A program made the position numbers and the translations under genes. 64,000 bases of DNA, from positions 1,012,007 through 1,076,006 of the forward strand of contig JAHBZE010000002.1 of NCBI GenBank assembly GCA_019635585.1, read 5' to 3'. The notes under the pieces are model-generated. The model was given only the letters and a program-made list of their open reading frames with translations. It ran no database searches and was not told where the DNA came from. Positions 3,598-49,001 of this stretch are shown here, one piece after another. Positions within the stretch are counted from its first letter, which is position 1, and each line of letters opens with the position of its first letter. The stretch is from Xanthobacteraceae bacterium (GTDB lineage Bacteria > Pseudomonadota > Alphaproteobacteria > Rhizobiales > Xanthobacteraceae).

Positions 3598-3739
3598 GGC
3601 TGAAAAATCCGCTGAAAAATCGCGCGCGGAAATAACATGGCAGCCGATGCGGGTCCAATGACGGCAGGTTTGCAAATGTGTATTGCGCGGCTTGCTTCGC
3701 GAGGATTTCTCCCGACATTGCCCGGCAAGGAGAAAATGA

Positions 3740-24858: not shown

Positions 24859-26970
24859 ATGTCCGACACAACCGCAGGCGTCAGTTACAAGCCAAAAATG
24901 CCCACGATGGGCGAGCTCGGCGCGCTACTCCGGCGCGGCGACCTGATGTTGGCCATCGCCGTCCTTGGCATCCTGGTCGTCCTGATCATGCCGCTGCCGC
25001 CGATGGTCCTCGACCTTCTGCTGGCGCTCTCGATCATCCTCTCGGTACTGATTCTTATGACGGCGCTCTTTATTCAGGGGCCGCTGGAATTTTCTGCCTT
25101 TCCGACCGTGCTCCTGATGGCGACGATGCTCAGGCTCTCGCTGAACCTCGCCTCGACGCGGCTTATTCTCACCCACGGCCATCAGGGCACTTCCGCCGCC
25201 GGCCACGTCATCGAAGCCTTCGGCAACTTCGTGATGGGCGGCAACTTCGTGATCGGCATCATCGTGTTCGCGATCCTTGTGATCGTGAACTTTGTCGTCA
25301 TCACCAAGGGCTCGGGCCGCATCGCGGAAGTCGCGGCCCGTTTTACCTTGGACGCCATGCCCGGCAAGCAGATGGCGATCGACGCCGATCTTTCCGCCGG
25401 ACTGATCGACGAGAACGAAGCTCGCAAACGGCGCAAGAACCTCGAGGACGAAAGCGCCTTCTACGGCGCGATGGACGGTGCCTCGAAATTCGTGCGCGGC
25501 GACGCGATCGCGGGTCTCCTGATTGTCTTCATCAACATCATCGGCGGCATCGTCATTGGCATGGCACAGCAGGGACTGACGTTCTCGAAGGCGGGCGCGG
25601 TCTATACGCTGCTCACCGTCGGCGACGGTCTGGTCACGCAGATTCCCGCACTGATCGTTTCGACCGCCGCGGGCCTGCTCGTCTCGAAAGCGGGCGTTTC
25701 GGGCGCCGCCGACAAGGCGTTGCTGAAGCAGTTGTCGAACTATCCAAAAGCGCTGGGTATGTCGGCAGGGGTCATGATTGTGCTTTCCACGCTGCCCGGT
25801 GTGCCGATGCTGCCGTTTCTGGCTCTCGGTACGGGAGCGGCAACGCTCGCCTTCGTTAGCACCCGTCAGAACAAGGCGGCGGCGGCCGCAGAAGCCGCGA
25901 AAGCCTCGGCGAAGGAACCGAGCCTGCCGCAGGAAGAGCCGATCGCGAATGCGCTGAAAATCGACGATCTCAAGATTGAAATCGGTTACGCGCTCTTGCC
26001 GCTCGTCAACGCACCCGACGGTTCGGATCGCCTCACCGAGCAGATCAAGGCGCTCCGGCGCCAGATCGCAAGCGAAATGGGCTTCGTTATGCCCTCGGTC
26101 CGCATCATCGACAACGTGCAGATGGAATCGAACGCTTACACGATCAAACTGAAAGAGGTCGATGCAGGTTCCGGCAAGGTGCATCCGGGCAGCCACATGG
26201 TTATGGATCCGGCGGGCGGTCAGGTGAACCTCGCCGGTCACCACACCACCGAGCCGACCTTCGGCCTGCCCGCAACCTGGGTGGACGAATCCTTGCGGGA
26301 GGAAGCGAGCCTGCGCGGCTACACCGTGGTCGATGCCGCGACCGTCATGTCGACGCATCTCGCCGAGGTGCTGAAAGCCAACATGGCGGACCTGCTTTCC
26401 TATGCGGAAGTGCAGAAACTCCTGAAAGAGCTGCCGAAGGAACAGAGCGAACTCTTGAAGGATATCGTGCCGAGCCAGATTTCGGCTTCAGGAATCCAGC
26501 GCGTGCTCCAGTTGCTCCTCTCCGAACGCGTCTCGATCCGCGACCTCGGCACAATTCTGGAAGGCATCGCCGAAGCCGTGCCGCACACCCGCAACGCTTC
26601 GCAGATCGTCGAGCAGGTGCGCGTGCGCCTTGCCCGCCAGCTTTGCGCCCAGCACGTGTCGCCGAACGGCTATCTGCCGCTCATTTCGCTTTCGCCGAAG
26701 TGGGAACAGGTTTTCGCGGAATCGATCGTGGGCACCGGCGACGACAAGTCGCTTGCCATGCAGCCGTCGAAGCTGACCGAGTTCGTCACTGAAGTGCGCG
26801 AGCGCTTCGAGCATGCCGCGCGCATGAACGAAGCACCCGTGTTGCTCACCTCCGCGACGGCACGCCCCTTCGTGCGGCAGATCGTGGATCGCTTCCGTCC
26901 ACAGACCTCGGTGATGTCACAGGCCGAGATTCATCCGCGGGTCCGGCTGAAGACTGTCGGCAGCGTATAA
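24859..26970 (+). CDS. flhA: Flagellar biosynthesis (type III export) protein FlhA
   Basis: Trimmed to the ATG at 24859 (SD GGAGAG). Canonical FlhA TM region (FPTVLLMATMLRLSLNLASTRLIL, VIGIIVFAILVIVNFVVITKGSGRIAEVAARFTLDAMPGKQMAIDADL) and cytoplasmic domain. Confidence 0.97.
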   Translation: MSDTTAGVSYKPKMPTMGELGALLRRGDLMLAIAVLGILVVLIMPLPPMVLDLLLALSIILSVLILMTALFIQGPLEFSAFPTVLLMATMLRLSLNLASTRLILTHGHQGTSAAGHVIEAFGNFVMGGNFVIGIIVFAILVIVNFVVITKGSGRIAEVAARFTLDAMPGKQMAIDADLSAGLIDENEARKRRKNLEDESAFYGAMDGASKFVRGDAIAGLLIVFINIIGGIVIGMAQQGLTFSKAGAVYTLLTVGDGLVTQIPALIVSTAAGLLVSKAGVSGAADKALLKQLSNYPKALGMSAGVMIVLSTLPGVPMLPFLALGTGAATLAFVSTRQNKAAAAAEAAKASAKEPSLPQEEPIANALKIDDLKIEIGYALLPLVNAPDGSDRLTEQIKALRRQIASEMGFVMPSVRIIDNVQMESNAYTIKLKEVDAGSGKVHPGSHMVMDPAGGQVNLAGHHTTEPTFGLPATWVDESLREEASLRGYTVVDAATVMSTHLAEVLKANMADLLSYAEVQKLLKELPKEQSELLKDIVPSQISASGIQRVLQLLLSERVSIRDLGTILEGIAEAVPHTRNASQIVEQVRVRLARQLCAQHVSPNGYLPLISLSPKWEQVFAESIVGTGDDKSLAMQPSKLTEFVTEVRERFEHAARMNEAPVLLTSATARPFVRQIVDRFRPQTSVMSQAEIHPRVRLKTVGSV

Positions 26971-26977
26971 AAGTTTA

Positions 26978-27006
26978 GGCCGCCGTAGCGCGACGCTGCG
27001 GCGGCC
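26978..27006. terminator. Long GC hairpin between convergent flhA and fliJ (bidirectional terminator candidate)
   Basis: GGCCGCCGTAGCG-CGA-CGCTGCGGCGGCC, about a 13 bp stem. No strong U-run. Confidence 0.6.
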
Positions 27007-27028
27007 CAATCTCTTCAATAAAACGAAC

Positions 27029-27436
27029 TTAGACGCGGATGCGCTGTGCGCCGATGCGGTCCATTTCCGCCTGCTCGCGGGCGGCTTCGATGCCGCGGCC
27101 ACGCATTGCGTCGCGCTCTTCCAGAATCTCGACCTTCTTCAATTCCTCGAAGGCGTCGGCGAGCTGCGCCCGGGCGTCCTCAAGCTGACCGTGAAGTTCC
27201 TGCGCGGAACGCTTCAGGTTATCCCGGCGCTGGATCGCGGCCTTGGCATAAGTCGGATAGGCGAAGTGCCCGGGGTCGTTGATGCCGGCGCGGTCCTGCT
27301 CGACCGTGATTTCACGTTCGAGATCGTTGGCCATGCGCTCGAATTCGGCGACCATCGCCTCGATCTGGGCGACCTGTCGACGCTTCTCGTCTACCTGAAA
27401 GCGCTTCAGGCGAATGAGGGTTTCACGCGATTTCAT
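27029..27436 (-). CDS. fliJ: Flagellar export chaperone FliJ
   Basis: 135 aa all-helical protein directly downstream of fliI. N-terminus MKSRETLIRLKRFQVDEKRRQV is typical of alphaproteobacterial FliJ. Confidence 0.8.
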   Translation of the reverse strand: MKSRETLIRLKRFQVDEKRRQVAQIEAMVAEFERMANDLEREITVEQDRAGINDPGHFAYPTYAKAAIQRRDNLKRSAQELHGQLEDARAQLADAFEELKKVEILEERDAMRGRGIEAAREQAEMDRIGAQRIRV

Positions 27437-27460
27437 CCCGGCGATACTCCACGCGACCGG

Positions 27461-28786
27461 TTAGGACTCAGTTACTGGACCCGCTACAATTTGAGCGAGT
27501 GCGCGGTAACCATCGCCGAGATTCGTTTTTTCTTCCTTACCTTGGGACAGAAAAGCTTCCAGCGCCGGCTGGAGCCTGATCGCCTCGTCGACCTCGGGCG
27601 AGGACCCCTGCCGGTAGGCCCCTAACCGGATCAGTTCCTCCATGTCGCCGTAGGTGGCGAGTACCTGCTTGGCTTTCACCACTGCCGGATAGAACTCGGG
27701 GTCGGAGGATTTGGGCATGGTTCGGGACACCGACTTCAACACGTTAATCGCCGGGTAACGTCCACGCTCCGCGATCGCCCGCTCCATGACGATGTGCCCG
27801 TCGAGGATGCCGCGAACCGCATCCGCGACCGGCTCGTTATGGTCGTCGCCATCGACCAGCACCGTGAACAACGCCGTTATCGTGCCCTTGTCTGGTCCTG
27901 GCCCGGCGCGCTCGAGCAACCGCGGCAGTTCGGAGAAGACCGTCGGCGTATAGCCCTTGGCGGTCGGCGGTTCGCCGCCCGCGAGCCCGATCTCGCGCTG
28001 GGCCATGGCGAAGCGCGTGACGGAGTCCATCAGAAGGAGAACGTCCTTGCCCTCGTCCCGAAAATATTCGGCGATGGCCATGGTGAGCAACGCCGCCTGC
28101 CGGCGCATTAACGCCGGCTCGTCGGAGGTTGCGACCACCACCACGGAGCGTGCGAGACCCGCTTCGCCGAGGTCGTCCTGCAGGAATTCCTGCACCTCGC
28201 GGCCGCGCTCGCCGACGAGCCCGATCACCGCGACATCGCAAGCGGTGTAGCGAGCTAACATCGACAAGAGCACCGACTTGCCGACGCCCGAGCCCGCGAA
28301 GATGCCGAGCCGCTGGCCTTTGCAGGTGGTGGCGAAGGTGTTGAGCGCCCGCACCCCAAGATCGAGCGGGCTGCCGACCCGCTTTCTCGTATGCGCAGCC
28401 GGCGGCGGCGCGCGGAAGGGATAAGGCGATGACCCCGGCTTGATCGGCCCCTTGCCGTCGATCGGCTGGCCATGCGCGTTCACGACCCGGCCGAGCCAGG
28501 CGGAAGAGGGCCGCACCGCCGCGCCTGCCTGCGAAACGATGGCCCGGCAGCCGCGCCGCACGCCCTCGACCGCGGCGAACGGCATGACGACCGCGTTATC
28601 CCCTGCGAAGCCGATCACCTCGCAGGGCACGCCGCCGTTAACCCCTGTTTCGATCGTTAATCGCGCGCCCACGGGCATCGCATGAACGGGTCCCGCGACC
28701 TCGATCATGAGGCCCCGAACCGCCGCAACACGCCCATAATTCAGGGTCCCGTCGAGTTCTTCGATCTGCTCTGCGAGTGCCTTCAT
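27461..28786 (-). CDS. fliI: Flagellum-specific ATPase FliI
   Basis: Walker A GSGVGKS, Walker [11 protein letters not shown]1-ATPase-like fold pattern; 441 aa. Confidence 0.97.
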
Positions 28787-45870: not shown

Positions 45871-46116
45871 ATGGCGAAGAAGAAGCGTAAGAAGGCGAAA
45901 GCCAAAGCAAAAAAGAAAAAGACCAAAGCAAAGGCGAAGAAGAAAAAGGCGAAGCGCAAGAAGGGCCGCCGCACGACGATGTACAGCTCCAAGGGCAAGA
46001 AGCTCTATGCTGTCCGTTCGGCGGATGGAAAATTCAAGGACATCCAGACCTACAAGCGCGCCCACACCATGGACATGAAGCGGCATTCGAAGGCTGAAGA
46101 CACGCCGGCTTCCTGA
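45871..46116 (+). CDS. Small lysine-rich (histone H1-like tail) protein
   Basis: 81 aa. SD GAGGGGA 7 nt upstream of the ATG, and a strong terminator 21 nt after the stop. N-terminal 32 residues are almost only K/A/R (MAKKKRKKAKAKAKKKKTKAKAKKKKAKRKKG), followed by a non-repetitive 45 aa C-terminal part with normal GC3 bias. Confidence 0.7.
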   Translation: MAKKKRKKAKAKAKKKKTKAKAKKKKAKRKKGRRTTMYSSKGKKLYAVRSADGKFKDIQTYKRAHTMDMKRHSKAEDTPAS

Positions 46117-46137: not shown

Positions 46138-46165
46138 AAAACGCTGGCCTTACGGCCAGCGTTTT
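46138..46165. terminator. Bidirectional rho-independent terminator
   Basis: AAAACGCTGGCC-TTAC-GGCCAGCGTTTT: 12 bp stem with A/T runs on both sides, between convergent genes. Confidence 0.88.
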
Positions 46166-46180
46166 CCATTTTAAGGACGC

Positions 46181-46567
46181 TCAAATACCCGACAGCTTGT
46201 AGGCCGTCCCATAGCGCCCGAAGTCGTGCGACTTGATGTTGTTGCGGAGACTTCCCTCGTATTGCTGGAGCGGATCCACCACCGTGACCTTCACGACGGC
46301 CGTATCGCCGGGCTTTACGATGCCGGCATGGACCACGGCGACCGAAAGCATCGAGTCGCCGGTATAGATGTCGGTGCCCCAGACCTGCCCCTCGGTCTCG
46401 CCCTTGATGCGGAAGTAATAATTCGCGCCGATGTCCTGCCCGAGTTCGATCATATTGACCGGGGCTTCCGCCGCCAGAAACCCCTGATCCAGAAGCGCGC
46501 GAAGCTGTTTCGGCGAAAGCTCGCCGCGCCGGTCGAAGTAGTTCACCAGTTCCTGCACGACTTTCAT
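46181..46567 (-). CDS. Cytosolic LCCL-domain protein
   Basis: 128 aa, no signal peptide. GTDIYTGDSMLSVAVVHAGIVKPGDTAVVKVTVVDPLQQYEGSLRNNIKSHDFG fits the LCCL pattern (G.D.YT.DS.I..AA.HAG ... Y.GS..NG..S) but lacks the cysteines. ATGA overlap with the upstream gene. Confidence 0.7.
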   Translation of the reverse strand: MKVVQELVNYFDRRGELSPKQLRALLDQGFLAAEAPVNMIELGQDIGANYYFRIKGETEGQVWGTDIYTGDSMLSVAVVHAGIVKPGDTAVVKVTVVDPLQQYEGSLRNNIKSHDFGRYGTAYKLSGI

Positions 46568-47820
46568 GCGCGGCCTCCCTGCATGCGGATCACGTGCCCA
46601 TAGGGCGGATTAAAACTTGCGTAGGCGCCGGGCGTGATGACCCAGAGCACGTCGTAGGGCATCTCCTCGGGCGGGAACGCGATGTCGCCATCAGTGATCA
46701 CGAGCGCCGCGGTCACCCGCGCATCGTCCGCGAGCCCGCGCATCGCGGGCGTGAGATCGCTGCCGCCGAAGCCGCTGATCTGGTAATCGGCAAGCGCTTC
46801 CGGCGAGAGCATTTCGTCGCCCGTCACCGCGGCGTCGCATTGCACGAGCCGGATTTCGTCGATCGAAAGCTGCTCACAGAAATCCGCGATCGCGCCCAGT
46901 GCCGGCGAAATCTCGTCGGTCATGGAACCCGAGGTATCGAGCACGACGTTCAGCATCCAGGATTCGCGCTTGCGGCCCGCGAGCACGATGTCGCTGCTCG
47001 TGAGTTCGCGCCGCGAAGGCCGGATATAGGTCCGCTCGCCGGGCGCAACCGACTCGATCCACTTCTGCATCGCGGCTTCCCACGGAGTCTTGTACATGCC
47101 GCGCAGCGCCATCACGGTCTGGGTTACTTCGCCGGCTTCGACGCCGCGCCCCTTCATCGCGCCCATCGCCTTGCCAAGCGCGAGCGCTCTCGCAGCCGCC
47201 GCGCGCATCTGTTTCGCCTGCTCCGCCTGCCCGTTCTGGCACTCGGGAAACAGTTCGCGCTCCTTCGCCTCGTCCATGACATCGCCCGCGTCTTCGGCGC
47301 TCTGGCTGCCGCCTTGGCCCGACTTGTTCAGCGCGCCGCGCGCGGAGATCGCCTGCCCATCCCAGACCTGCGTCTTCGACTGCATCTGCTCGCCGTTCTT
47401 GCGCATTTCCAGCACGATCTGTTCGGCGGATTTCTCCTTCGCGCCCGGCATGTCGAGCCCGCCAGCGGGGACGTGGCTGAAACCGAGTTCGGCGCGCAGG
47501 ATGTCGTTGATGATGTAGTCGTGCGCGTAGTTGAACTCGAGCCGGCCCGAACCTTTCGCGCGGTCGTGCGTGCGCAGCGCAAGGTGGAGCAACTCGTGCG
47601 CGAGCACGAAGATCAGTTCGTTCTCTTTCAGCTTCGCGACGAACTGCCGATTCGCGACCATGCGGCCCGAAGCGAACACTCCCATGGTCGGCACGCGGTC
47701 GTCGATCGAGCAGCGCACGGCAGCGGCCAGCCCCGCGAGATGCGGCATCGGCACCGTCACCATGCGAAGCCCGCGCTCGATGCGCGCGAGCGTCTGCGCG
47801 GAGGAAGGAACCGGCTTCAT
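46564..47820 (-). CDS. HExxH metallopeptidase-like / vWA-like (MIDAS) two-domain protein (DUF2201-type)
   Basis: Trimmed to the ATG at 47820 (ATGA overlap with the AAA+ stop). N-terminal LAHELLHLALRTH motif and C-terminal VVLDTSGSM (DxSxS MIDAS). The 631 aa longest ORF is an out-of-frame overlap with the upstream gene. Confidence 0.8.
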   Translation of the reverse strand: MKPVPSSAQTLARIERGLRMVTVPMPHLAGLAAAVRCSIDDRVPTMGVFASGRMVANRQFVAKLKENELIFVLAHELLHLALRTHDRAKGSGRLEFNYAHDYIINDILRAELGFSHVPAGGLDMPGAKEKSAEQIVLEMRKNGEQMQSKTQVWDGQAISARGALNKSGQGGSQSAEDAGDVMDEAKERELFPECQNGQAEQAKQMRAAAARALALGKAMGAMKGRGVEAGEVTQTVMALRGMYKTPWEAAMQKWIESVAPGERTYIRPSRRELTSSDIVLAGRKRESWMLNVVLDTSGSMTDEISPALGAIADFCEQLSIDEIRLVQCDAAVTGDEMLSPEALADYQISGFGGSDLTPAMRGLADDARVTAALVITDGDIAFPPEEMPYDVLWVITPGAYASFNPPYGHVIRMQGGRA

Positions 47821-48851
47821 ATCGCCGTGACTTCTTTCAGCAACTTCAGCATCGACTTGTCGGCGCCGAGCGCGCCCCACTGATCGACCAGTTCGGTGAG
47901 CAGCGTAAGCTGGCTTTCTGCGGGTAAGCTGCCGAGGAAGCGGTTCACGATTTTCGGCTTCAGGTGCGAAAGCTTTCCTTCGCGCACGTTCTGCCGGATG
48001 CAGTTGAGGATGAACCAGCGCGCGGCATCGGTCTTGGGAAGCAGGTCCGGCGCCTCGATATATTCGTCGATCGGCCGCATCTTGCCGATCGCTTCTTCCG
48101 CGAGCGCGCAGTACACGGCGGCATCTTCCGCCGACAAGCGGCCGAAGGCGAGCGCGCGCCGCGTCTCGTTCGTCAGAATGCCCGCGGCTCCCGCCATATC
48201 GAGCGCCTGCGCGAGCAGCGTCCATGCGCGCGGCGTCGAGAACGGCACCGGCTCGGGCGGCACCGGCCGCATCAAGGCGTCGGGCATGTATGAAATGAAG
48301 GCCCGCACATCTTCGCGGATCGAATTCTTCGCGGCCCAGGCGAGCCACTCGCCGGCATCGACCCGCAGATGCAGGATCGTGACACGGTTCACGAGCGCGG
48401 AACTCATGGCGCGAACCAGCGCGCGATCCTGCATGCGGTTGCCGGCCGCGACTACCCATGTGCCTTTGGGAAGCGCGTGTTCGCCAAGCCGGCGCTCCAG
48501 GAGCAGCGAATAAAACGCCTTCTGCACGTCAGGTGCGCAGGCCGGAAGCTCGTCGAGAAAGAGACAGAACGGCTCGGGATTTTCAGGAAGTAGCACGCGC
48601 GGCGGGCAGAACACCGAACGCTCGCCAATGATGCGCGGGATGCCGGAGACGTCTTCCGGCGCGATTTGCGTGCCCAGGAGCGAGCGGCAGGGCAGCTTCG
48701 CTTCGGCTGCCGCCTGATAGATCATCTCGGACTTGCCGACGCCCGGCGGCGACAGCAGGAGAAAGCTCTGCTCTCCCGCCATGCATTGCACGAGCTTCTT
48801 GGCCTGCTGCAGCGTGATCGTCTCTTCGCGCGGATTGACGGCGACGTTCAT
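47817..48851 (-). CDS. MoxR-like AAA+ ATPase
   Basis: Walker A LLLSPPGVGKSEM, Walker B FCLFLDELPAC, sensor-1 VVAAGNR, plus a helical C-terminal extension; 344 aa. Confidence 0.88.
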   Translation of the reverse strand: MNVAVNPREETITLQQAKKLVQCMAGEQSFLLLSPPGVGKSEMIYQAAAEAKLPCRSLLGTQIAPEDVSGIPRIIGERSVFCPPRVLLPENPEPFCLFLDELPACAPDVQKAFYSLLLERRLGEHALPKGTWVVAAGNRMQDRALVRAMSSALVNRVTILHLRVDAGEWLAWAAKNSIREDVRAFISYMPDALMRPVPPEPVPFSTPRAWTLLAQALDMAGAAGILTNETRRALAFGRLSAEDAAVYCALAEEAIGKMRPIDEYIEAPDLLPKTDAARWFILNCIRQNVREGKLSHLKPKIVNRFLGSLPAESQLTLLTELVDQWGALGADKSMLKLLKEVTAI

Positions 48852-49001
48852 GGCTTGCGCTCTCCCCGCCCGGAATCGGGCGATTTCGCCACTTAGGGAG
48901 AGCTTTGCGGCAGCGCTAGTGTGTAGGCCGAAGATTCAGGCGCAGGTTGTGGCTCATAAGTAGAGAATTTTTGCACACAACCGGGCGCTGCGGGACTGGC
49001 G

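Follow-up and report, generated by a model that had tools for sequence, protein, structure and literature searches.

A conserved gene trio encoding a MoxR-like AAA+ ATPase, a putative zinc peptidase with a vWA domain and a cytosolic LCCL protein in Proteobacteria

Gene content of the locus

The stretch of DNA analysed here (the window, 64,000 nt, whose numbering is used throughout) belongs to a Xanthobacteraceae metagenome-assembled genome and contains three minus-strand genes, g1, g2 and g3, which are listed with their features in Table 1. They encode what appears to be a divergent MoxR-like AAA+ ATPase, a protein combining a putative zinc peptidase with a vWA domain, and a small cytosolic LCCL protein, and the accessions given in the table are exact matches to the three products. 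The reading favoured here, tentatively and by analogy with related machines, is that the three proteins would form one cytosolic, ATP-powered zinc protease targeted through a metal-ion-dependent adhesion site (MIDAS), with g3 as the predicted sensing or targeting subunit held at that site.

The genes are joined by two ATGA overlaps, in which the stop of one gene meets the start of the next; a preliminary description of the locus, made from the sequence alone, had placed both exactly where they are found. In the automatic listing of open reading frames (ORFs) the g2 frame runs upstream to 48459. This start was rejected because the orthologues begin at the overlap ATG, the extension being a high-GC artefact.

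Table 1. Position of the three genes, their conserved elements and the adjoining non-coding features in the window.
Feature	Position	Strand	Details and basis
g1	47817-48851	-	344 aa; MBX3521390.1; annotated 'AAA family ATPase'
g2	46564-47820	-	418 aa; MBX3521389.1; annotated 'hypothetical protein'
g3	46181-46567	-	128 aa; MBX3521388.1; annotated 'hypothetical protein'
ATGA overlap, g1 stop/g2 start	47817-47820	-	read from sequence
ATGA overlap, g2 stop/g3 start	46564-46567	-	read from sequence
g1 Walker A, SPPGVGKSE	48726-48752	-	aa 34-42; sequence; P36, G37, G39, K40, S41 invariant
g1 Walker B, FLDELP	48543-48560	-	aa 98-103; sequence; F98 through P103 invariant
g1 sensor-1 region, AAGN	48438-48449	-	aa 135-138; sequence; followed by conserved R139, D142, R143, N155-R156
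g2 zinc site, HELLHLALRTH	47566-47598	-	H75, E76, H79, H85 invariant in 51 sequences
g2 second invariant peptidase block, FNYAHDYIINDI	47500-47535	-	aa 96-107; conservation profile, invariant columns
g2 central region	46966-47433	-	~aa 130-285; conservation profile and pLDDT
g2 vWA domain	46582-46956	-	aa 289-413; pLDDT, Foldseek, invariant MIDAS residues
g2 MIDAS, D295-x-S297-x-S299 (DTSGS)	46924-46938	-	aa 295-299; sequence
g2 MIDAS, GFGGSD loop	46753-46773	-	sequence
g2 MIDAS, T376-D377	46684-46698	-	sequence
g3 N-terminal helical hairpin	46481-46567	-	helices 2-13 and 19-27; secondary structure of model; family-specific
g3 LCCL domain	46184-46465	-	aa 35-128; generic core WGTDxYTxDSxxxxAAVHAG at 46322-46381
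Hairpin, perfect 12-bp stem AAAACGCUGGCC/GGCCAGCGUUUU, i.e. AAAACGCTGGCC-GTAA-GGCCAGCGTTTT	46138-46165	.	sequence
Promoter-like element	48891-48919	-	-35 CTAGCG (48914-48919), 16-nt spacer, -10 CCTAAGT (48891-48897); recurring motif
Shine-Dalgarno, GGGGAGAG	48860-48867	-	8 nt before g1 ATG; read from sequence

Conservation and distribution

By pattern search in a single genome for each species (185,579 species genomes), 207 matches to relatives of g3 were obtained that tblastn confirmed. Eighty of these loci were fetched and, together with four from look-ups of the exact proteins, compose the 84 loci compared. The same three genes in the same order were identified in all 84, with g2 directly upstream of g3, and g1 upstream of g2 wherever the contig reaches (in eight loci it stops short of g1 and in a few others within g1). 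The neighbourhood comparison that the preliminary description had proposed therefore finds the trio conserved in both Alpha- and Betaproteobacteria, and the arrangement is far beyond chance. Carriers among the former are Xanthobacteraceae, Pseudorhodoplanes, Bosea, Phreatobacter, Pseudochelatococcus and Devosia; the latter comprise Burkholderiales and Casimicrobiaceae, and one bin is labelled Acidobacteria. Among the carriers that can be cultured are Bosea caraganae, Bosea sp. MMO-172, Pseudochelatococcus contaminans and Pseudorhodoplanes sinuspersici. The trio is present in at least 80, and probably in about 200, species of soil and sludge Proteobacteria.

The 4-bp overlap is kept at 60 of 71 g1-g2 junctions and at 59 of 82 g2-g3 junctions, the exceptions at the latter being mostly 2-17 nt apart. 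Orthologues of g3 are exactly 128 aa long in 82 of the 84 loci, and g1 is 72-99% identical across 73 loci. The lowest identities to the window proteins are about 72% for g1, 56% for g2 and 53% for g3. These data bear on the idea that the trio is only what a prophage or plasmid left behind, decaying and with no current function, an idea which the existence of phage and plasmid homologues of g1 and g2 (described below) might encourage. The frames are intact, the lengths fixed and the catalytic residues invariant, the overlaps are conserved across two bacterial classes and the GC content of the trio is that of its surroundings; the conservation data effectively refute this explanation, which is hardly credible.

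No fourth conserved gene was identified, as every flanking family is limited to 12 or fewer of about 80 loci, and the unit is exactly three genes. The flanks in the window and in Pseudorhodoplanes sinuspersici are unrelated ordinary genes, and there are no tRNA genes within 3 kb of the trio in the window. Horizontal transfer is suggested by the patchy spread over Alpha- and Betaproteobacteria, the identity of g1 between these classes (72-80%) and the variable flanks. The trio is probably horizontally mobile, outside any recognisable island.

The AAA+ ATPase

The Pfam match of g1 is AAA_5 (28.2 bits, cut-off 22); the MoxR profiles bpMoxR and Mg_chelatase remained below threshold and AAA_3 was not detected. 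In its plasmid relatives, which are 33-48% identical and are named 'MoxR family ATPase' by the Prokaryotic Genome Annotation Pipeline (PGAP), AAA_3 reaches 17.9-19.3 bits (cut-off 27). One relative on an actinobacterial plasmid, 48% identical to g1 over 215 aa and carrying the same PGAP name, scores on AAA_5, bpMoxR and AAA_3. Among phage families g1 matches PHROG 1297 ('ATPase', E 2e-57). Searches of solved structures in the PDB, with the single sequence and with a profile, gave only non-specific AAA+ matches (E ~0.01-0.06).

Residue invariance in g1 was judged in 26 diverse orthologues, where GVGKS, LFLDE and AAGN are all present and invariant, and the protein carries all the residues for ATP binding and hydrolysis. 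The residues around AAGN are presumably sensor or arginine finger, an assignment taken from general AAA+ knowledge. The gene adjoins that of a vWA-domain partner, g2, through the 4-bp overlap. From its sequence g1 may be classed as a divergent MoxR-like AAA+ ATPase, and the catalytically intact enzyme that had been proposed agrees with the AAA_5 match and with the invariant motifs.

The zinc peptidase-vWA protein

Two Pfam families cover g2: DUF2201_N (PF13203; 73.4 bits, cut-off 23.2, E 3e-20, aa 23-288) and DUF2201 (PF09967; 57.5 bits, cut-off 26.4, E 1.8e-15, aa 291-413). Peptidase_M48 is just over its cut-off (21 bits against 20.3), M56 gives a weaker match, and PHROG 1314 is matched with an E of 1e-54. 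A sequence search of the PDB was uninformative. The zinc motif HELLH lies at aa 75-79, and the spacing points to H85 as the third zinc ligand. By Foldseek the N-terminal domain resembles the minimal metallopeptidase selecase (4qhi; E 7e-3, template-modelling score TMt 0.59).

The best structural matches of the vWA domain are the MIDAS domains of MDN1/Rea1 (8ql1, 6qt8, 6qtb; E 1.5e-5), and the same Foldseek search also matched NorD in NorQD complexes (9qhg_G, 9qhe) and integrin I domains. D295, S297, S299, T376 and D377 of the MIDAS are invariant in 51 sequences. The AlphaFold model has an overall predicted local distance difference test score (pLDDT) of 64, with values of 78-92 in the vWA domain and below 50 at residues 90-140, 146-184, 222-243 and 262-284. 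The stretch 146-184 also varies in both sequence and length. A conserved basic/aromatic block (YxTPW...PGERT...RR) spans residues 243-285. The architecture, with the vWA domain C-terminal, is fixed in all 82 g2 orthologues. The protein appears to be an intact HExxH(x5)H zinc peptidase and an intact MIDAS vWA domain with a variable, low-confidence linker between them, as the preliminary description had proposed from the HELLH and DTSGS motifs.

Homologues of g2 are labelled 'HNH endonuclease' in RefSeq and PHROG. This label was rejected: the family is DUF2201_N/DUF2201, and Pfam found no HNH domain in g2 or in the gp25-like protein of Roseovarius phage 1. On gp25-like proteins of N4-like phages (e.g. 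locus L085, 3884-5116; PHROG 1314) it appears to be a propagated misannotation.

The cytosolic LCCL protein

The only Pfam matches of g3 are LCCL (PF03815; 48.8 bits, cut-off 22.6, E 8e-13, aa 58-118) and Rxt3 (E 4e-10). The profile hidden Markov model searches suggested at the outset place LCCL, vWA (DUF2201), HExxH (DUF2201_N) and AAA_5 all above the Pfam cut-offs. The protein has no cysteine, signal peptide, transmembrane segment or hydrophobic N-terminus. Its AlphaFold2 model (pLDDT 86, predicted template-modelling score, pTM, 0.81) has as top Foldseek match the LCCL domain of cochlin, 1jbi (E 6.6e-6, TMt 0.80, root-mean-square deviation 2.4 A, 101 columns), at a sequence identity of 18%. 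The early assignment of a 128-aa protein with an LCCL core and no signal peptide is borne out by this model and by the Pfam score. The second Foldseek match is Rxt3 in SIN3L/Rpd3L complexes, which is also the nearest solved protein by sequence (8i03_I, E 3.6e-6; compare PDB 8ga8_K and 8hpo_J). Rxt3, a subunit of the yeast Rpd3L/SIN3L histone deacetylase, contains an LCCL-type domain, and the literature search found no paper joining Rxt3 and LCCL.

The core of the domain, W63, G64, T65, Y68, D71, S72 and A77-G82 (AAVHAG), is common to 538 LCCL repeats of other bacterial proteins, and so are G105 and R108, which suggests that generic LCCL function is retained. The lack of the disulfide cysteines had been pointed out as a feature of the protein. 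There are indeed none in g3, but this is not a special trait, as bacterial LCCL domains are generally cysteine-free; because the cysteines are missing from the consensus of the 538 repeats, the two disulfides mark only an animal LCCL subgroup. What sets g3 apart is that it is cytosolic, consists of a single domain and carries at its N-terminus a helical hairpin specific to its family. The motif of this hairpin (MKVVQELVxYFDRRGxL) is near-invariant in 80 orthologues and has no counterpart in the 538 repeats. When the 42-aa hairpin was used as query for other cargo domains a single fragment was returned, in a search so insensitive that the known family itself was not recovered.

The LCCL fold occurs in cochlin (mutated in DFNA9 deafness), in Plasmodium LAP proteins, in Limulus factor C and in Rxt3, and we know of no defined molecular activity established for it. 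An exhaustive search with g3 gave 3,300 cluster representatives, and architectures were counted in the best 150 of them (P0121-P0270). Almost all of the 150 are multi-repeat proteins, with up to 11 repeats, and most contain a signal peptide or transmembrane segments. Fusion to a BlaR1-type M56 zinc peptidase was identified in 24 and to a Ser/Thr kinase in 9; rare partners were OmpA, Ig-like domains, chitinase, TIR and caspase. Both the M56 and the kinase fusions often contain PSCyt2 (DUF1549) and SBP_bac_10 (DUF1559) as well. In these two types the LCCL repeats are apparently the sensor domain, which suggests that LCCL is an input domain for proteolytic or signalling output. They have the same generic core as g3, and in the former it is coupled to a gluzincin-type HExxH peptidase, but they are membrane-bound with extracytoplasmic tandem repeats, whereas g3 is a single cytosolic LCCL domain on a separate polypeptide, accompanied by an AAA+ motor and a vWA domain.

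No vWA domain was identified among 61 bacterial LCCL proteins scanned. Animal cochlin contains LCCL and two vWFA domains, and cleavage by a zinc metalloprotease frees the LCCL domain (PMC7526977). LCCL and vWA also stand together in vitrin (akhirin), and both proteins are a precedent for activation of LCCL by metalloprotease cleavage (PMC7526977; PMC12839204). Cochlin differs from the trio in being an extracellular, disulfide-bonded single polypeptide cleaved by an unrelated protease (ADAMTS-4), while g3 is cytosolic and cysteine-free. The peptidase of g2 scores on M48 and M56, the family type of the BlaR1-LCCL fusions. Both halves of g2 are thus joined to LCCL, or act on it, elsewhere, which is indirect support for a direct partnership of g2 and g3.

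The release of LCCL from cochlin by aggrecanase and from akhirin is also the precedent for another explanation, in which g3 would be the substrate or a pro-protein: the motor would unfold or extract the hairpin, g2 would cleave, and the free LCCL domain would be the active product. The division of g3 into hairpin and LCCL domain, the intact peptidase site of g2 and the overlapping genes, which may mean stoichiometric co-expression, are in keeping with it. However, no variable linker separates the hairpin from the LCCL domain, and the hairpin is better conserved than any other part of g3, which would be unusual for a propeptide that is discarded; the pTM of the model also suggests one compact unit. 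No cleavage-site motif is definable, and no activity is known for an LCCL domain free in the cytosol. This explanation is considered rather unlikely.

Relatives in phages and plasmids

Genes g1 and g2 are homologous to gp24 and gp25 of N4-like phages, which stand in the same order (an AAA_5-type ATPase, then a DUF2201_N-DUF2201 protein). These are two of the 14 N4-like core genes, both of them middle genes, and are listed as 'unknown' and 'vWFA' (PMC4193335). From bioinformatic analysis Iyer et al. 2021 had also pointed out a homologous pair of MoxR and metallopeptidase-vWA genes in jumbo phages, and proposed virion assembly and proteolytic processing as its role (PMC7824862); this remark is the only literature statement found on the peptidase-vWA pair. 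Pairs of the g1/g2 type were identified on plasmids of Burkholderia (beside type IV secretion genes), Simplicispira, Streptomyces, Nostoc and Miltoncostaea and on pSYSA of Synechocystis.

The N4 gp24/gp25-type pair (PHROG 1297 and 1314), including that of the jumbo phages, has the two families and the gene order of the trio. It differs in its sequence (identity ~22-32%) and in the lack of an LCCL gene in the phage and plasmid version, the trio being chromosomal. No LCCL gene was identified beside any of the phage and plasmid pairs examined. The small ORFs that follow the pairs of Nostoc, Synechocystis, Simplicispira and the Roseovarius phage have no LCCL match and no shared family, and hhalign found no relation between the g3 family and the small ORF downstream of the Miltoncostaea pair (probability 0.2%). 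By these comparisons the LCCL gene is a lineage-specific addition to a widespread two-gene module and, as the pair is widespread without it, g3 is regarded as an added specificity component and not as part of the motor. The literature search found no description of a MoxR, peptidase-vWA and LCCL trio, in agreement with the preliminary description. Its claim of novelty stands for the LCCL third gene and the chromosomal trio but not for the AAA+/peptidase-vWA pair, already represented by the N4 type.

The closest outgroups are the plasmid pairs of Nostoc, Streptomyces and Miltoncostaea (loci L097, L098 and L086), whose g1 is 42-48% identical. Their peptidase-vWA proteins are 576-609 aa long, with an extra N-terminal region of ~180-225 aa without Pfam match, which could be a fused counterpart of a third component. 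The pair of Synechocystis sp. PCC 6803 (locus L099, pSYSA, record 26352-28630) consists of overlapping MoxR-like and DUF2201 genes located among toxin-antitoxin genes (DUF433/PIN, HepT, DUF1778/GNAT) and a DUF262 gene, and offers the two-gene version in a genetically tractable model organism.

These relatives raise a possibility at the level of role, compatible with either g3 mechanism (sensor or pro-protein): the trio could be a module for conflict or stress that arose from a gene pair of mobile elements (defence, abortive infection or addiction-like), in which an LCCL signal would trigger proteolysis. Besides the place of its relatives among N4-like core genes, on conjugative plasmids and among the toxin-antitoxin genes of pSYSA, the patchy distribution and variable flanks that suggest horizontal transfer, the extracytoplasmic function (ECF)-type motif upstream of 13 betaproteobacterial loci (described below) and the rare LCCL fusions to TIR and caspase are in its favour. 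Against it, PADLOC-DB 2.0 and NCBIfam gave no significant match (g1 gave only IetA, E 0.088, and IteA, E 0.28; g2 and g3 gave none), and in the window and in locus L001 the trio is flanked by common metabolic genes and not by a defence island. In 2.9 million viral contigs the trio does not occur; the g3 and g1 profiles gave only distant matches there (2 and 6, respectively). All three proteins are under strong purifying selection without a hypervariable sensor, and the trio corresponds to none of the ternary systems of Kaur et al. discussed in the next section. Such a role is not a probable one.

Comparison with MoxR-vWA systems

The pairs CbbQ/CbbO, NorQ/NorD, CoxD/CoxE and RavA/ViaA combine, like the trio, an AAA+ motor with a vWA/MIDAS adaptor. 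The trio is distinguished from them by the N-terminal zinc peptidase of g2, by the LCCL subunit and by the lack of an adjacent client gene, and g1 is not detectably close by sequence to solved MoxR proteins. Rea1/MDN1 provides the best structural matches of the g2 vWA domain and has AAA_5-family modules. In this motor the MIDAS holds a small domain through an acidic residue and pulls on it, the domains being the ubiquitin-like (UBL) domains of Ytm1, Rsa4 and NLE1. Rea1/MDN1 is, however, a eukaryotic single-chain giant without a peptidase, and its ligand has the UBL fold, whereas the ligand proposed in the trio is the LCCL protein.

MoxR-vWA ternary conflict systems of the VMAP, iSTAND, FtsH and beta-propeller types were described by Kaur, Burroughs, Iyer and Aravind 2020, who call the MoxR-vWA pair chaperone and co-chaperone and report that the vWA protein can carry a fused peptidase, a metallopeptidase being a rare case (PMC7159879). 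A MoxR protein, a vWA protein and a third, conserved one are common to these systems and the trio. None of the four types matches the trio, as g3 is LCCL/Rxt3 only and neither VMAP, iSTAND, FtsH nor beta-propeller. Its peptidase is N-terminal to the vWA domain and no effector diversification was identified, whereas the effectors of the Kaur systems are variable and occupy a C-terminal position. Neither LCCL nor DUF2201 is mentioned in PMC7159879. The literature search found no paper combining LCCL and MoxR and no relevant comparative genomics of bacterial LCCL; DUF2201 appears in a domain table, and its remaining mentions look unrelated by title or abstract. The trio is a MoxR-vWA system with a new LCCL component, not a new category.

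The characterised role of MoxR-vWA pairs (established knowledge, and the chaperone and co-chaperone of PMC7159879) supports a further explanation, in which the trio would act as a chaperone in the maturation or assembly of a client whose gene lies elsewhere, such as a metalloenzyme or an envelope complex, with g3 as client adaptor and the peptidase trimming the client. The assembly and processing proposal for the phage version (PMC7824862) and the resemblance of the g2 vWA domain to NorD point in the same direction. Characterised MoxR-vWA chaperones sit beside their clients, however, and no conserved client gene adjoins the trio in about 80 loci; the sporadic spread (207 matches in 185,579 species genomes), the varied flanks and the mobile-element relatives fit an accessory module better. 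A maturation chaperone is on balance improbable.

Proposed mechanism

In the protease reading favoured here g1 would form a hexameric ring, as proposed from CbbQ/CbbO, NorQ/NorD and the MIDAS-UBL contact of Rea1/MDN1. The ring would be docked by g2, whose MIDAS metal would grip an acidic residue of a partner, and ATP hydrolysis would remodel this partner and so license cleavage by the tethered g2 peptidase. The partner at the MIDAS would be g3, bound through its invariant hairpin, with D12 (in the YFDRRG turn) or E6 as candidate ligand. The retained generic LCCL surface of g3 would in turn bind a ligand or client and gate the protease, in parallel with the BlaR1-type proteins, in which a membrane zinc protease has LCCL repeats in place of its sensor domain. 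The output could be stress proteolysis or a function in inter-genome conflict. The resemblance of the g2 vWA domain to MIDAS domains that grip protein ligands (MDN1/Rea1 with UBL; NorD in NorQD) is counted in favour of a MIDAS-held partner.

Several points weigh against this reading. The data do not separate a sensor or adaptor role of g3 from that of substrate or pro-protein, and enzyme-substrate and toxin-antitoxin pairs are typically coupled in translation as well. As the LCCL domains of bacteria mostly lie outside the cytoplasm, a sensing role in the cytosolic g3 is an analogy. The strong conservation of g3, which is not diversifying, argues against invader sensing. The match of g1 to MoxR is weak by profile (bpMoxR and AAA_3 sub-threshold, and no solved MoxR structure matched by sequence), and the overall confidence of the g2 model is low (pLDDT 64).

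A stronger form, in which g3 would genuinely sense a ligand in the cytosol and so gate the AAA+-powered, MIDAS-coupled zinc protease, is quite doubtful. If true, it would be a new class of signal-activated proteolytic switch in bacteria and the first biochemical function for the LCCL fold, would explain the N4 gp24/gp25-type pair on phages and plasmids, and would give the logic of cochlin-type innate immunity (LCCL, vWA and metalloprotease) a prokaryotic counterpart. To our knowledge the coupling of a protease to a MoxR-vWA motor has been shown for no system. The trio genetically locks a small soluble LCCL protein to a motor-protease and is therefore a simple three-protein system for reconstitution; should g3 prove to be what the MIDAS binds or what gates the protease, this would also apply to general LCCL biology and to the pairs of phages and plasmids. 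The trio is conserved, tractable and well defined, in a family of MoxR-vWA systems whose general logic is already understood.

Flanking and regulatory sequences

Downstream of g3, the hairpin at 46138-46165 sits between convergent genes, and a 66-nt region that includes it has a folding energy of -33.4 kcal/mol (z = -5.6 relative to shuffled sequences). A simple terminator consensus scanner made no call at this position because the U-run is short (UUUUC). It is probably a bidirectional intrinsic terminator, which agrees with the terminator foreseen there. The convergent gene (45871-46116, plus strand) encodes an 81-aa protein whose N-terminal half is almost pure Lys/Ala (MAKKKRKKAKAKAKKKKTKAKAKKKKAKRKKGRR...) and whose C-terminal 45 aa are conserved. 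It adjoins the trio only in the close relatives of the window (loci L002-L017) and, as it sits elsewhere in L065, is not part of the module.

Upstream of g1, the predicted gap of 150 bp was confirmed as 48852-49001, and an Rfam search of the operon region of the window gave no match. In 19 alphaproteobacterial loci with divergent surrounding sequence, the motif CT(A/G)GCG-N16-CCTA(G/C)AT was identified between -65 and -86 relative to the g1 start. A one-base variant of it, CTAGCG-N16-CCTAAGT, is present in the window and in three near-identical loci; a sigma-70 consensus scanner made no call at this element (48891-48919), which from its recurrence probably acts as a promoter. In betaproteobacteria a different motif, GTCAAC-N16/17-CGTT or, more fully, (T)GTCAAC-N16/17-(G)CGTT, lies 62-98 nt upstream of g1 in 13 loci (L034, L036, L037, L042, L044, L046, L047, L049, L050, L052, L057, L058 and L074) whose upstream sequence is otherwise divergent. 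We take it to be an ECF-type promoter, from its AAC/CGT signature. A tblastn search for an ECF sigma gene in the flanks gave no match, the probe, E. coli RpoE, being of limited sensitivity.

A hairpin in the 5' untranslated region (GUUCCUGGUGAGGGA ... UCUUCACCCAGGAGC) pairs with the g1 Shine-Dalgarno in a Pseudorhodoplanes-type subgroup comprising L016 (~3640-3690), L001, L013, L018-L020, L024, L027, L029, L045, L048 and L056, and is lacking in the window. It has 15 pairs, the stems being invariant and the loop differing between loci in both sequence and length; its folding energy in L016 is -28 kcal/mol (z = -4.2). No covariation was identified and, for L016, no Rfam match. It may be a translational riboregulator.

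Directly upstream of the putative -35 element of the window there is an inverted repeat, GGTTGTG-N24-CACAACC, with an A-rich centre (48945-48982, minus strand). It is kept in the nearest relatives (loci L005-L017) and could be a regulator-binding site or the transcript end of the upstream sugar-binding-protein gene.

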